Source: Candidatus Anstonellales archaeon (GTDB taxonomy: Archaea > Micrarchaeota > Micrarchaeia > Anstonellales > J096). Taken from it: DNA of 64,000 nt. Each line of letters begins with the position of its first letter. The stretch's first letter is position 1. The DNA is taken from contig JAWACY010000001.1 of the NCBI GenBank assembly GCA_038896535.1, forward strand, positions 355,111 to 419,110, in the 5' to 3' direction. This document shows positions 58,301 to 61,300 of the stretch, piece after piece. Position numbers: made by a program.

Positions 58301-61300
58301 ACAAATATTGGCACAATAACAATCTGTATTGGGCTTAAATCAAGTGGGAAAAAAAGGCCTTTTTCATCACCATGCCAGCTTATCATAGCAGCCAAAAATC
58401 TTTGCATACCTGGACCACAAGTTGTTTGCCATACATATTTTTTCTTTCCATCTACATCGAGGAACATTATATTAAACGGCTTTGAAAAATTATTGCCTAG
58501 CAAATGTGTTGTTAATATTTGCAAAACTCTAGAATCAGGCATTAATGTATCAGCAGCATAAGTTTCTTCTGCTCCAGCAAATTTATCCCATTCTGGCCTT
58601 CTGAAAAATATGAATGGAATACCAAAAATATGCTTGACAACTCTTTCTGCTATTTCTATATCTTGCTTTATCTGGTTTCTTGCATTTTTCTCATTGTTGA
58701 ATGCACAATGTGTTTCTATCCACAATATCTCTCTCCCCCTTATTAAAGGTCTTGTTGCCTTTGTTTCATACCTCCATACTGTCCCGCTTTGGTATACTTT
58801 TAACGGCAGGTCTTTTGCACCATTTATCCATAACGAGAACATTGGATATATTGCTGTCTCACTAGTTGGTCTCAAAACAACAATTTCCTCCTTTGCAAGT
58901 TCATTTAAGCCTGCTCTTGTTATCCAAAAAACCTCGCCTTCAAAACCTTTTATGTGCTCTTCCTCTTTTTTAAAATATTCTATTGGTATAACTGCCGGAA
59001 AATGAACCGGCATATGCCCATTTTCTTCAAGCACTTTTTCATACATGCTATACATTTTTTTCAGAACAAACATTCCCCAAGGCCTGTAAACAATAAAGCC
59101 TTTGACATTATAACGTAAATCTATTATTTCTGCTTCTTTTATTATTTCATTATACCATTCAGAAAAATTGTTCTTATTAAGCTTAGCCATAGAAAAAATT
59201 CACAAAACCTTTTTTAAAATAATGCATAATTTATTTATGTCATCTGCATTTGGCCAGGCATTCGCACAAGCTTTTGCGCAGGCTTTTGCTTTTTTAATTC
59301 TTGCTGCATGCTTTGCATTTATTATTATTTTAATAGGCATAATTAATTTCCTTGTTTATGGCCTTTCTAAATTTCCGAAAAAGGCGATAATATCATTGAT
59401 AATAGCGTTCTTATCTTTCATTATAAGCATAATATTAATTGATTATAAAGCAGTCGCTTTTATTATTCCCTATGTGGTTCTTTTTGCATTTTATTTTGGC
59501 GTAAATTTTAAAGAAAAAACGTCTCCATTATTTGAGCGCATAGCAAAAGAAACAGGGAAAATGTCTTTAATTGGAGGAGCCATAATGTTAATCATATTAA
59601 TATTATTGTTTATATTCTCTCTACCAAGCATTTTATCTCTTGACATAAACGTAATTGCCCCATTCATAACATTTTTCTTAATATCATTATTTAATATATA
59701 TTTCGGGCTTAAGGCCATTGACAAAAATTTATTTTCTGCTTTTTAATTTTGCCTCTTACTTAAGCAATATTTATAAAATTTCACAAAATAACGAAAAAAG
59801 CAACATTTTTAAATAGTTCCATAAATATAATAATATCAATGATTGCTGGCACTTTTAATGCTTTTAATAGTAAAACGTGCAATAATAAAACATGCATGGC
59901 AAAGGCAAATGGTAGTAAAAAAAGGCATAGCAAAGGCAATGCACAGAAAATTGCAGAAAAGAAAACGAAAAATAAGGAATTAGAAAAATTTAATGTAATT
60001 ATTGATACTTGCTATATTTTAGAACAGCTAAAGGCTGGAAGGAGCATAAAAGATGTGCTATTTTCTTTAGCAGAAGGCAAAGAAGTAAATAATGTTATTA
60101 TACCAAAGCAAGTATTAGATGAGCTATGTAATATTTTATCATCAAGGGCCGATGTAAAGAATGAAATAATTAAAGCTGGCTTAACCTTATCTAAATTAAA
60201 AGCTGACATTGAAGAATTTAGATATTGCACATTACATGAAAGGGTCAAAATTATAGATGTAATTATAGATAATGAAGAAATTACATATTATAATAAGTTA
60301 TTGGCTTCGCAATCTATTAAAGGCAATAGAAGGATAGGTTTAGGAGAAGCTGCAATATTCAATATTATAACTAAACATTGCTCTTTAGATTGCTCTTTAG
60401 ATTTTTTTAATGACTTTGGCGGAGAAAATATAAAAATATTAGTATTATCCCTGGATTCAGATGTTTCAACATTATTGAAATTATTGAAAAATATTAATGG
60501 GGTGTAAAAGAATGAATCAAGTATTTAAATATAAAAAACCACTTAGGCTGCCTATTGGTGATAAGCAATATGGAAAGAGATATTTAAGAGAAGATGAGGC
60601 AGAGAGATTATTTTCGTTCCGTTTAATAGCTGAAGAAAAATTTGATGGCACTATGCATGAGATAGATACACAAGAATTTAAATTTTATGTTGAGGATATG
60701 AAATACAGAAAGACAATTCCTTATAGAATACCAGCAAGATATGCTGTTTTTGATATTCTTGATAAGAGGGCAACTATCTTTTTAAGAAGAGATGACAAAG
60801 AAAGACTTGTAATTGATATAATAAAGGGCAGAATATGGGCATATAGACATTTAGCTGATAAGTTATTTATTGTTCCTTTAATAGAAGCAGGAAAGTTCTC
60901 AATTTCAGAAGTACCAAAGCTTGCTGATATGTGCTCTTATTATGGCCATGGCAAAAATGTGCCAATAGAAGGAATAGTTTTCAAAATTGATGCTGCTATT
61001 TCAATACTTGAATCATACCCATTTTCAGCAAAATATGTAAGGGCTGATTTCATAGATAAAATAAATAGTAGTGATAAAAAAATATCTGGGTTAAATGTTA
61101 TAAGCTCAAGCATACCAATGATATTATCTTATAAAAATCAATCAGCAAAGATTAAAAATCAAATAAGAGAGCCTTAAGGCTCTCTACAAAAAATCCATTC
61201 AATAATCTTGGGGGAGACTGCTACCTTGCCAGTCTTTATTTATAAAGAAATAAGCTTTTCTTCCTGCAAAGCCTTTTTTTAAAACTCCAATTCTGCATAA

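Follow-up and report, generated by a model that had tools for sequence, protein, structure and literature searches.

Two small genes of a Candidatus Anstonellales archaeon, one coding for a PIN-domain protein (g00435) and the other for a ligase-like nucleotidyltransferase (g00436), lie side by side in the 64,000-nucleotide stretch of DNA analysed here (the window, to which the coordinates refer), raising the question of whether a cutter and a joiner of RNA are encoded at this locus as parts of one system. The reading we favour, at somewhat under an even chance, is that the two proteins form a heterodimeric RNA cut-and-seal module as subunits of one small enzyme. The lengths of 222 and 221 aa, the 4-nt spacing and the common strand given in the preliminary description were reproduced by an ORF scan and by inspection of the sequence, and the layout of the locus is as follows:

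59806..59816, plus strand: TATA-like A/T-rich box TTTTTAAATAG, 23-33 nt 5′ of the PIN start, found by sequence inspection
59839..60507, plus strand: gene g00435 for the PIN-domain protein (222 aa and stop codon, ORF scan), with residues 1-50 forming a Lys/Asn-rich tail predicted to be disordered and residues 51-222 the PIN core
60497..61177, plus strand: ORF holding g00436, whose first ATG (60497) is an alternative start giving 226 aa
60499..60504, plus strand: Shine-Dalgarno-like GGGGTG, 7 nt 5′ of the ligase ATG and within the end of the PIN ORF
60512..61177, plus strand: gene g00436 for the ligase-like nucleotidyltransferase (221 aa and stop codon)
61166..61185, no strand assigned: 8-bp perfect palindrome with a TTAA loop, AGAGAGCCTTAAGGCTCTCT, a terminator-like match covering the ligase stop codon

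The relatives of g00436 align from the ATG at 60512, 4 nt past the PIN stop codon, and the position of GGGGTG suggests, as far as sequence inspection goes, that translation of the two genes is coupled. The box TTTTTAAATAG may serve as an archaeal promoter for a transcript with a short leader or none; sites found with a sigma-70 promoter scan, a model not applicable to archaea, were no commoner than in shuffled sequences. The palindrome is placed between the ligase gene and a convergent wHTH gene and looks like a two-way terminator hairpin. The neighbours of the pair in the window are a hydrophobic ORF and this wHTH protein, and no ncRNA was detected beside the pair, the single ncRNA match being a tRNA-Met at 57641-57715. 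The stretch occurs, with identical sequence, in metagenomic DNA runs of hot springs that come from two studies, one of them perhaps its source, and the one RNA run found covers only positions 61182-61300, that is, the neighbouring wHTH gene outside the pair. In the closest genomes (G162, G269, G031 and G082) the ProRS and Rrp42 genes are far apart or on separate contigs.

The Pfam figures behind the assignment of g00435 to the PIN domains were reproduced: PIN_12 (E 1.7e-5, 25.7 bits) stays under its cut-off of 32, PIN_4 (E 2.1e-4, 22.0 bits) is barely above its cut-off of 21.9, and PIN (16.1 bits) is under its cut-off of 23.6. There was no match to PIN_5 (PF08745) at E ≤ 1, NCBIfam gave no match for either g00435 or g00436, and the PDB sequence search with the PIN protein returned one insignificant match (E 0.37). 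Word-index homologue searches recovered the query alone for each protein (1 of 113 and 1 of 1156 candidates), and all the relatives of both proteins considered below derive from the full HMMER scan and from genome searches. The structure model of g00435 has pLDDT values above 90 over the core and below 50 for residues 1-21, and all 50 structural neighbours listed for it (Foldseek, VIA) are PIN domains, including Utp24, VapC, SMG6, Nmd4 and HARP. The predicted active site is made up of four acidic residues:

60004..60456, plus strand: codons, located from the sequence, for D56 (60004-60006), E95 (60121-60123), E170 (60346-60348) and D206 (60454-60456)

D56, E95 and D206 are invariant in both alignments made (17 of 17 and 15 of 15 sequences), and at position 170 all 17 sequences, read by eye in the alignment, have D or E. 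The conservation of the four acidic residues described before thus stands, with the correction that the third is E170 in the GLGE motif, G167 being an invariant glycine. By its model, g00435 has a PIN fold of the VapC structural group and possesses the four acidic residues.

These neighbours include many VapC toxins, which introduces the main rival explanation, that of a toxin/antidote-like conflict or addiction module in which the PIN protein is a ribotoxin and the ligase neutralises it, by binding or by resealing the cut RNA, in a stress response or in virus defence. We consider it a real, if rather unlikely, possibility. Such a role for an RNA ligase was proposed, according to PMC5499597, in an ATP-grasp ligase system with PIN/HNH nucleases. 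The partner of g00435, however, is no small DNA-binding antitoxin but a 221-aa enzyme with conserved catalytic motifs, and VapBC type II systems, which have their DNA-binding antitoxin upstream in one operon, differ from the present pair also in that its gene order is variable and PADLOC finds no match to it.

The motifs of g00436 are located at:

60632..60649, plus strand: motif I EEKFDG (E41-G46) with the predicted AMP-accepting lysine K43, codons from sequence
60968..61042, plus strand: motif IV (E153-G154-I-V-F-K158) and motif V (K174-Y-V-R177)

The Pfam score, numbers of relatives, invariant residues, model scores and best folds previously given for this protein were all obtained again. 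The full HMMER scan yielded 69 relatives, 46 of them at E ≤ 1e-10 and two at E ≤ 1e-30. Pfam RNA_ligase PF09414 matches g00436 at E 2.5e-4 and 21.7 bits over profile positions 62-171 only; since this is below the cut-off of 27, the protein belongs to a divergent branch and is no clean Pfam member, while 39 of 45 aligned relatives match PF09414 at E ≤ 0.01 (best 5.9e-12). In the 45-sequence alignment E42, D62, Y71, P74 and G154 are invariant. Motif I is kept with E42 in 45, K43 in 40, D45 in 42 and G46 in 44 sequences, the lysine being absent in five, and motifs IV and V with G154 in 45, K158 in 44, E153 in 37, K174 in 37 and R177 in 30; D81 of motif III is found in 43 of 45 and F119 of motif IIIa in 42 of 45. 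The residues were assigned to motifs III, IIIa, IV and V by position and structural match, using the customary motif definitions, and the spacing of motif I, with the lysine directly after a glutamate, is presumably the RNA-ligase pattern.

The model of g00436 (pLDDT 93.6, pTM 0.89) finds its best Foldseek matches in 1s68 and the Naegleria ligase (TMq 0.44-0.49), and the nucleotidyltransferase domain takes up its residues 1-187 of 221, the rest being a short low-confidence helix. No second Pfam domain was detected in g00436, and the clade-specific accessory domains of Rnl1-Rnl6, clades listed in PMC12153264, are absent from its 221 aa, including the C-terminal domains of T4 Rnl2 and of Rnl6 and the N-terminal OB domain of Rnl5 (Naegleria gruberi / Deinococcus). 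The PDB sequence search with the ligase gave no matches, and in none of the 69 relatives is a PIN domain fused to the ligase. Model and alignment agree that the protein is RNA-ligase-like, is limited to the nucleotidyltransferase domain, keeps the lysine of motif I and has no accessory domain. What the preliminary description called a minimal stand-alone ligase is accordingly reduced to the one domain, as claimed, but is less singular than was implied: clusters of PF09414-only proteins of 217-246 aa are common in bacteria, archaea and phages in the Atlas, where the structure neighbours of g00436 are PF09414 domains fused to AAA_33 kinases. It is among the smallest ATP-dependent ligase forms in this analysis. 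One relative, P0015 (639 aa), carries an unrelated helical C-terminal extension.

The nearest non-archaeal relatives of the ligase are stand-alone PF09414-only proteins of about 245 aa (234-275 aa), which match the ligase-family profile at E 1e-15 to 1e-24 and PF09414 at E 1e-28 to 1e-34, easily above the threshold, unlike g00436. In Planctomycetota, Verrucomicrobiota and Zooshikella their genes directly precede an HD + AAA_33 gene, the two ORFs overlapping at some loci, and the gene next to the ligase was of this HD-Pnk type in eight of nine loci scanned. By their gene content, these bacterial relatives sit in putative RNA-repair cassettes. The same ligase-HD-Pnk arrangement is described, in PMC6097658, for the RNA-repair cluster of Runella slithyformis (Munir and Shuman 2017; Munir et al. 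2018), the Runella ligase being placed with these relatives by gene arrangement only. Like g00436, the bacterial HD-Pnk ligases consist of the nucleotidyltransferase domain only, whereas the partner in their cassettes is an end-healing kinase-phosphatase and that of g00436 a predicted nuclease. No HD-Pnk end-healing gene adjoins the window pair, and the best AAA_33 match of the genome is a weak one (21.9 bits), a 162-aa P-loop kinase about 3 kb from the pair.

This gene context also bears on the nature of the substrate. The pair might instead work on DNA, a PIN-like flap or nick nuclease and a minimal DNA ligase making up a module for patch repair or of a mobile element. The FEN-type DNA nucleases placed in the PIN-like superfamily by PMC5499597 lend this reading some weight, as does the fact that sequence does not reveal substrate preference. 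A DNA substrate nevertheless seems to us very improbable, with the best structural neighbours of both proteins being RNA enzymes and the bacterial relatives standing in RNA-repair cassettes. The motif I spacing is presumably also of the RNA-ligase type, and elsewhere the genome has an ORF of 589 aa that matches ligases and is presumably the replicative ATP-dependent DNA ligase.

The absence of an accessory domain from g00436 allows for another reading, namely that the ligase-like protein is an adenylyltransferase only, capping the RNA 5′ ends made by the PIN protein or AMPylating some other molecule without sealing, which would mark or protect ends. In T4 Rnl2 the accessory domain is reportedly needed for the step-2 reaction. 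According to PMC6097658 the Runella ligase forms enzyme-AMP and, alone, seals none of the tested 3′-OH/5′-P substrates, and the Rnl3 of Palaeococcus, as cited in PMC12153264, shows strong substrate adenylylation and weak ligation. We hold this reading to be improbable all the same, as the family conserves motifs IV and V, which take part in each of the three ligation steps, and as a partner acting in trans restores sealing in the precedents described in PMC4366279 and PMC4411300. According to these, the OB fold of TbREL1 is supplied in trans by KREPA2 (PMC4366279), and Hen1 activates the Pnkp ligase, the Pnkp1-Rnl-Hen1 complex having a separate Rnl subunit (PMC4411300). In both systems a catalytic-domain-only ligase relies on the product of another gene to bind its substrate or to become active, and the PIN-ligase heterodimer predicted below would be of the same kind, with the difference that the known partners are an OB fold or a methyltransferase, whereas that of g00436 is a nuclease fold with its active site intact, in a complex that is a prediction.

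Turning to the favoured cut-and-seal module, its first support is genetic. Of 401 genomes of the phylum, 30 have the ligase family, 23 the PIN family and 20 both, so that 20 of the 23 PIN-positive genomes also carry the ligase family, and 17 of the 23 PIN-family genes lie at most 200 nt from a ligase gene. These 17 pairs are co-directional in six cases, divergent in five and convergent in six, which means that in many pairs the two genes do not share a transcript. Across at least six taxonomic families and all three gene orders they stay adjacent, with the other flanking genes unrelated between loci (CCA-adding enzyme, SHMT, PFOR, T2SSF, RpiA, diphthamide synthase). Seen from the ligase side, a PIN-family gene is directly adjacent at 16 of 27 other loci and a very divergent PIN-like gene occupies the same place at two more, while five have no PIN-like neighbour (L019, L023, L026, L028 and L030) and four cannot be judged as the contig ends there. 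The recurrence of the pairing in Micrarchaeota, earlier put at four of eight loci, is therefore stronger than first stated, and a search for related loci with an 8-row alignment indicated that the pair is almost restricted to Micrarchaeota. At two loci of one archaeal genus, an HD_5 protein follows the ligase. A long-form PIN partner was searched with its N-terminal 1140 residues, which gave no Pfam match and no lead in the Atlas (best score 0.77).

That the two are independent enzymes and neighbours by chance might be argued from the five ligase loci without a PIN neighbour and from one genome (G069) with a weak PIN-family match 77 kb from its ligase. One of these five ligase copies, L028, is without K43, D81, E153 and K174 and looks inactive from its sequence, which speaks for the cut-and-seal module. 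With 17 of the 23 PIN-family places in the 401 genomes abutting a ligase gene, with an adjacency that outlasts three gene orders and with a complex prediction that passes its controls, a lack of cooperation appears hardly credible.

For the toxin/antidote-like reading the same distribution cuts both ways. Small adjacent genes with a patchy occurrence (30 of 401 genomes) and variable flanks are typical of accessory modules, and the patchiness, with none found in either of the two largest families of the sample, suits an accessory role more than one in core processing. The ligase family seems, however, tied to lineages and not scattered, being present in all six genomes of family f17 and in none of the 177 of f12 and f13 (0 of 94 and 0 of 83), and the divergent or convergent order of 11 of 17 pairs is unlike an autoregulated toxin-antitoxin operon. 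PADLOC had no match for g00435, g00436 or two long-form PIN partners. A viral or catalogued-defence origin of the pair was also considered and found no support in PADLOC, in PHROGs (weak matches only, E 0.003-0.09), in viral contigs (452 pattern matches, none confirmed) or in phage records (no tblastn match to either family).

The second line of support for the cut-and-seal module is the predicted complex. The ipSAE of the PIN-ligase prediction is 0.84 (0.83, 0.84 and 0.84 in three runs) against 0.00 for the best of three controls, the runs share at least 95% of contacts, and the pLDDT of the partner is at least 86. The ipSAE mark used, which the prediction passes, is reached by 116 of 157 solved complexes and by two of 215 mismatched pairs, counts which are only rough because the analysis's own alignments were used. 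The two proteins are thus predicted to form a heterodimer; the PDB matches of either protein include no PIN-ligase complex. In the model the PIN protein docks at the ligase's edge, where it touches the loop joining motifs IV and V as well as the motif I and motif III strands at their ends facing away from the nucleotide pocket. A tight heterodimer is likewise what would be expected of a toxin-antitoxin pair, and the score, being one of model confidence, does not reveal whether the complex is productive or inhibitory. The named catalytic residues are absent from the listed interface residues, although neighbours of some of them are present and residues beyond those listed are uncertain.

The same genome contains a separate HARP(PIN_5)-Rnl3 pair, the Rnl3 of which carries Lig_C, so that the second PIN-ligase pair reported for it is confirmed. 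In PMC12153264 (Seshadri and Gopalan, mBio 2025), HARP and Rnl3 are also a PIN nuclease and an ATP-dependent RNA ligase with linked genes of patchy distribution, often abutting, like g00435/g00436, and variable in orientation, frequently bidirectional; the co-occurrence was noted earlier by Matelska et al. 2017 (PMC5499597). The hypotheses raised there for HARP-Rnl3, namely processing with circularisation, a toxin-antitoxin function and adenylylation, are common to both pairs. With hhalign comparison of family profiles, g00435 matches the genome's own HARP with a probability of 1.2% and belongs to a different family, and g00436, which lacks the N-terminal and Lig_C (PF18330) domains of Rnl3, matches the genome's Rnl3 with a probability of 0.6%. 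These values rule out that the pair is a recent duplicate of HARP-Rnl3.

Taken together, the co-occurrence in 20 of 23 genomes, the adjacency in three gene orders, the complex prediction and the HD-Pnk neighbours of the bacterial relatives lend support to the earlier proposal of a cut-and-rejoin RNA module. The folds, catalytic motifs, co-occurrence, adjacency and complex prediction are results of the analysis; that the substrate is RNA, which ends arise, that the complex is productive and what its biological target is are inferred. In the mechanism proposed, g00435 would be a PIN endoribonuclease that depends on metal, of the VapC/Utp24/SMG6 type, with an N-terminal tail that is basic and disordered, and g00436 a classic lysine-adenylylating ATP-dependent RNA ligase pared down to the nucleotidyltransferase domain. 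Hydrolytic PIN nucleases leave 3′-OH and 5′-phosphate ends, and if this holds for g00435, as assumed here, the PIN subunit would leave just the ends that a classic ligase seals, so that neither a kinase nor a phosphatase would be needed. This would explain a two-gene module in archaea as against a bacterial ligase beside HD-Pnk. RtcB, which the genome also encodes, acts on 2′,3′-cyclic-P/5′-OH ends. The PIN protein would probably also supply in trans the RNA-binding or targeting surface that the domain-less ligase lacks, and the net outcome would likely be that one specific cellular RNA is excised and rejoined, circularised, or reversibly cut and repaired. A bolder version, which we regard as unlikely, is a heterodimeric RNA 'cut-and-paste' enzyme not recognised before, in which the active PIN protein doubles as the substrate-binding domain of the ligase and one complex excises and rejoins or circularises a specific RNA via 3′-OH/5′-P ends. 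If this were true, these reduced archaea would have a protein-only route of splicing or circularisation parallel to EndA/RtcB, and the HARP-Rnl3 pair of the genome may work likewise.

Two earlier cases of a link between a PIN nuclease and an RNA ligase are on record, namely PIN_5/HARP with Rnl3 and PIN_3 with an ATP-grasp ligase. The pair g00435/g00436 is a third, independent case, formed by two uncharacterised families with an unusually tight genetic coupling and a confidently predicted complex. If the two are one enzyme, they would offer a compact system, easy to handle at about 45 kDa in total, in which to ask why cells combine RNA cutting with RNA joining, would show how a catalytic-domain-only ligase gains substrate binding, and could explain why bacterial relatives that are equally bare, the Runella ligase among them, become self-adenylylated yet seal nothing when assayed alone. 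A very small ligase derived from a thermophile could also serve as a reagent. That a genome of only 0.75 Mb retains RtcB, Rnl3 and g00436, and two PIN partners besides, suggests that breaking and rejoining RNA is important in these symbionts.

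The PIN–ligase pair, consisting of the 222-aa PIN protein g00435 and the 221-aa RNA-ligase-like nucleotidyltransferase g00436, is located between a prolyl-tRNA synthetase gene and an exosome gene cluster. The features of the locus, including the two ORFs as read from the window, are as follows.

Features of the PIN–ligase locus (coordinates, strand, description)
56218–56706, −: 162-aa P-loop kinase, about 3 kb upstream of the pair
57742–59190, −: prolyl-tRNA synthetase gene, flanking the pair on one side
59168–59746, +: very hydrophobic 192-aa ORF with a TTG start and no family match, just upstream of g00435
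59839–60507, +: g00435 ORF, 222 aa
60497 (first ATG, overlapping the end of g00435) or 60512 (second ATG) to 61177, +: g00436 ORF
61166–61185: perfect 8-bp palindrome spanning the g00436 stop codon, between g00436 and the convergent wHTH gene
61199–61678, −: wHTH gene, 159 aa, convergent with g00436
61899–63696, −: L37Ae/Rrp42/Rrp41 exosome cluster, flanking the pair on the other side

The second ATG of g00436 (60512), situated 4 nt past the TAA stop of g00435, yields the 221-aa protein; it is preceded at a distance of 7 nt by GGGGTG, and it is from this start that the relatives of g00436 align. The GC content across the pair is 0.27–0.32, which is the low end of the 0.25–0.38 range in the 10 kb profiled. 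No ncRNA was found beside the pair. The single RNA run covered just 61182–61300, outside the pair. In the 159-aa wHTH protein a coiled N-terminal half precedes a C-terminal winged helix with weak resemblance to the C-terminal domain of SoFic (E 7.5e-5 in Pfam, E 7.8e-4 for SoFic in PADLOC), and its gene is not kept beside the pair in other genomes.

The assembly, with 5 contigs totalling 0.75 Mb and a completeness of 91%, also encodes RtcB (E 1.2e-167) and a 589-aa ORF with a weak match to PF09414, which was taken as a putative ATP-dependent DNA ligase. A search of this genome with the AAA_33 profile found no HD-Pnk-like gene near the pair, the best match being the 162-aa P-loop kinase, which is weak (21.9 bits; 28.6 when neighbouring segments are included) and presumably of the adenylate-kinase/Fap7 type judging by its size and motif.

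By sequence, both proteins are only weakly placed on Pfam, and the figures of the preliminary description were reproduced exactly: g00436 matches RNA_ligase PF09414 with E 2.5e-4 (21.7 bits against a cut-off of 27), and g00435 matches PIN_12 with E 1.7e-5 (25.7 bits, cut-off 32) and PIN_4 with E 2.1e-4 (22.0 bits, cut-off 21.9). Neither has a match in NCBIfam. Across 1.84 billion representatives, the full HMMER scan again returned the 69 ligase relatives reported before, 46 of them at E<=1e-10 and two at E<=1e-30, most being 180–260 aa long. PF09414 is matched at E<=0.01 by 39 of the 45 near-full-length relatives that were aligned (best E 5.9e-12), and the residues E42, D62, Y71, P74 and G154 are invariant in this new alignment as well. 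Motif I of g00436 reads EEKFDG, and the nucleotidyltransferase motifs are conserved as listed below.

Conservation of motif residues in the 45 aligned ligase relatives
Motif I: E42, 45/45
Motif I: K43, 40/45
Motif III: D81, 43/45
Motif IIIa: F119, 42/45
Motif IV: E153, 37/45
Motif IV: G154, 45/45
Motif IV: K158, 44/45
Motif V: K174, 37/45

Structure comparison of the g00436 model gave the following scores.

Scores of the g00436 model against known ligases
NgrRnl (Rnl5) nucleotidyltransferase domain: 14.2 (rmsd 3.0 over 158 residues, 18% identity)
T4 Rnl2: 12.2
Trypanosome REL1: 11.4
MthRnl (Rnl3): 10.4
T4 Rnl1: 10.2
DNA ligases: 9.5 or less

A DNA substrate for the pair is regarded as having a slim chance. 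Residues 1–187 of the model align to known ligases and the remainder is a short low-confidence helix, so that g00436 is devoid of any accessory domain that defines an Rnl clade. The preliminary description implied a minimal ligase of a singular kind; the bare nucleotidyltransferase domain holds, but the protein is less singular than that, as several ESM Atlas clusters from bacteria, archaea and phages consist of 217–246-aa proteins with PF09414 only. The Atlas structures nearest to g00436 carry PF09414 in fusion with an AAA_33 polynucleotide-kinase-like domain. It is improbable, in our estimate, that g00436 serves solely as an adenylyltransferase. The sole long fusion among the 69 relatives is the 639-aa protein P0015, in which the ligase domain (2–198) is followed by a Lys/Glu/Asn-rich, probably helical region of about 440 aa without a Pfam match.

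For the PIN family, g00435 was aligned with 16 relatives encoded beside ligase genes. All four acidic active-site residues attributed to g00435 are conserved: D56, E95 and D206 are invariant, and the acidic position of the G-x-G-E/D motif, which is E170 in g00435 (the invariant glycine being G167), is always occupied by D or E.

The ligase-family profile matches 30 of the 401 sampled genomes of the phylum, 28 strongly (including the genome studied here) and two weakly. By taxonomic family, the ligase was found in 6/6 genomes of f17, 7/16 of f1, 5/30 of f2 and 6/76 of f6, and in none of the 94 and 83 genomes of the two largest families sampled, absences being soft as these are related MAGs of 77–97% completeness. 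The 1.5-kb flanks of the other 27 strong ligase loci were searched for neighbours, and a PIN-family gene was found directly beside the ligase in 16 of them, which bears out the earlier statement that the pairing recurs in Micrarchaeota.

Neighbours of the 27 other strong ligase loci
PIN beside ligase, short form of 170–230 aa (n=10): L003, L004, L005, L006, L007, L009, L013, L015, L020, L021
PIN beside ligase, PIN domain being the C-terminus of a long protein (n=4): L008, L011, L014, L016
PIN beside ligase, cut by the contig end (n=2): L012, L025
Very divergent protein in the same upstream overlapping position, with the D...E...E...D pattern kept and the family HMM unmatched (n=2): L024, L027
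Contig ends at the ligase, no judgement possible (n=4): L010, L018, L022, L029
No PIN-like neighbour (n=5): L019, L023, L026, L028, L030

In the same 401 genomes the PIN-family profile matches 23 at E<=1e-6, of which 20 also carry the ligase. In 17 of the 23, the PIN match is no more than 200 nt away from the ligase gene. The six exceptions comprise two pairs interrupted by contig ends (genomes G259 and G364), a weak match 77 kb from the ligase (G069), and three fragmentary or stop-containing sequences in genomes without the ligase (G221, G254, G353). No P-value is given for the linkage because the sampled genomes are interrelated. Pairs occur in at least six taxonomic families, and the gene order varies and tracks lineage: six pairs are co-directional with the PIN gene upstream (the genome studied here and five f17 genomes), five are divergent, and six are convergent, including all four long forms. 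The remaining flanking genes vary among loci (CCA-adding enzyme, SHMT, PFOR, T2SSF, RpiA, diphthamide synthase, HD_5 protein, DUF4143 ATPase), therefore the adjacency of PIN and ligase is the sole conserved feature, kept through several rearrangements. That g00435 and g00436 do not cooperate is considered scarcely credible.

The ligase copy of L028, which has no PIN neighbour, has lost K43, D81, E153 and K174, and the copy of L029, located at a contig end, has lost E153 and K174. The L028 paralogue (1468–2130, +) has a convergent neighbour of at least 495 aa (2134–3621, −), which shares a 100-aa stretch with the N-terminal extension found in the long-form PIN protein of L016 (42% identity, E 5e-22). 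In some Micrarchaeota the PIN partner constitutes the C-terminal 170 aa or so of a very large protein (L039:3087–7058, −; G228:C51; G345:C2). The protein of L039 has at least 1323 aa, and the open frames at the G228 and G345 profile matches amount to 1526 and 1120 aa; the N-terminal part gave no Pfam match and no Atlas lead. In every long form, the PIN and ligase genes are convergently oriented.

Two genomes of one genus (L009:2204–3568 and L013:2252–3610) have the order PIN, ligase, HD on the same strand, the last encoding a protein of 452–454 aa with a C-terminal HD_5/HD domain that is a possible partner in end processing. Genus g6 has two genomes (L006:1–1452, −, and L022:635–2097, +) in which a PIN + PilT-like ATPase protein of about 485 aa is encoded directly past the ligase. 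The pyruvate:ferredoxin oxidoreductase beta-subunit gene adjoining the pair in L011 (1–1287, +) matches LAGLIDADG_3 weakly (E 2.7e-4) close to the N-terminal end, a sequence similarity that hints at an inserted homing endonuclease or an intein.

A pattern scan with one genome per species yielded 31 loci, 19 close and 12 distant bacterial ones. Eighteen of the close loci belong to MAGs titled Micrarchaeota, Anstonellales or plain "archaeon", and one to a MAG contig titled "Elusimicrobia". The latter (L048, "Elusimicrobia bacterium", 60-kb contig) encodes a 214-aa ligase of the archaeal type (profile E 1.4e-60) with no PIN neighbour, and could result from misbinning or horizontal transfer. The distant loci come from Planctomycetota, Verrucomicrobiota, Acidobacteria and Zooshikella and encode stand-alone PF09414 ligases of 234–275 aa (Pfam E 1e-28 to 1e-34). 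In eight of the nine of these 12 loci that were scanned, the ligase gene adjoins a gene for an HD + AAA_33 protein with the HD-Pnk end-healing architecture. The arrangement matches the Runella slithyformis cluster, where PMC6097658 places a ligase ORF immediately upstream of an HD-Pnk ORF, the comparison being one of gene order. In a Zooshikella genome (L054:1711–4510), a single HD-Pnk-like HD + AAA_33 gene has a stand-alone PF09414 ligase gene on either side, the two ligases (218 and 259 aa) being paralogues.

The complex was folded from the PIN core (residues 48–222) and the ligase, each with its family alignment. Three runs gave ipSAE values of 0.83, 0.84 and 0.84, the best of three controls being 0.00; the runs share at least 95% of contacts, with a partner pLDDT of at least 86. 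Of 157 solved complexes 116 reach the ipSAE mark, as do 2 of 215 mismatched pairs; with custom alignments these counts are approximate here. Passing this mark supports binding between the modelled proteins, the score expressing model confidence and not a measurement. No solved PIN–ligase complex was present among the PDB matches of g00435 or g00436, and the high ipSAE is therefore unlikely to be a memory of a known structure. The predicted interface involves residues 51, 53, 59, 62–68, 72–83, 113, 201–205 and 210 of the PIN protein, i.e. helices alpha1 and alpha2 together with the strand that runs up to D206, with K65, G67 and L77 prominent in the alignment consensus. On the ligase it comprises residues 5, 32, 35–37, 86–89, 92 and 159–171, located at the distal ends of the strands that carry motifs I and III and in the loop linking motif IV to motif V. 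The named catalytic residues are absent from these lists, residues not listed being uncertain.

The predicted binding would also suit a toxin/antidote-like conflict module, as would the VapC-like fold of the PIN protein and the patchy distribution. Such a module is nevertheless rather unlikely, given that the partner is a conserved enzyme, gene order is variable, the distribution is structured by lineage, and no match was found in PADLOC or viral collections.

Hydrolytic PIN nucleases (RNase P-type HARP/PRORP, FEN1) leave 5′-phosphate and 3′-OH ends, and these are the ends joined by classic ATP-dependent ligases, so that a PIN nuclease and a ligase would be chemically self-sufficient. Ligases repairing 2′,3′-cyclic-P/5′-OH breaks need a kinase-phosphatase, and the bacterial cousins of g00436 have such a partner. 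Ligases made up of the catalytic domain only are known to require a partner in trans, with precedents in two papers: the OB fold of TbREL1 is supplied by KREPA2 (PMC4366279), and the Pnkp ligase is unlocked by Hen1, with a separate Rnl subunit inside the Pnkp1–Rnl–Hen1 hexamer (PMC4411300). With the chemical self-sufficiency and these precedents taken together, a heterodimeric cut-and-seal enzyme is favoured, if tentatively. The PIN subunit would cleave RNA and would also present it to the bare ligase for sealing.

The separate HARP(PIN_5)–Rnl3 pair to which g00435 and g00436 had been likened is indeed encoded in the same genome (L001:749–2346, contig 3), with HARP matching PIN_5 at E 1.8e-51 and Rnl3 containing PF09414 and Lig_C; the two genes are co-directional, the stop of the former overlapping the start of the latter (ATGA). 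The PIN–ligase pair was ruled out as a copy of it, the hhalign probabilities being 1.2% for the PIN proteins and 0.6% for the ligases. The PIN_5/HARP–Rnl3 linkage is already published (PMC5499597; PMC12153264), most of the several hundred pairs being bidirectional with 10 tandem cases only (PMC12153264), and for PIN_3 with an ATP-grasp ligase the latter was proposed to neutralise nucleases (PMC5499597). No publication on the present pair was found among the papers listed in searches of freely readable articles, supplements such as Table S1 of PMC12153264 aside. What is new is a third independent PIN–ligase pairing, made up of two uncharacterised families, nearly confined to Micrarchaeota, with very tight co-occurrence and a predicted heterodimer.
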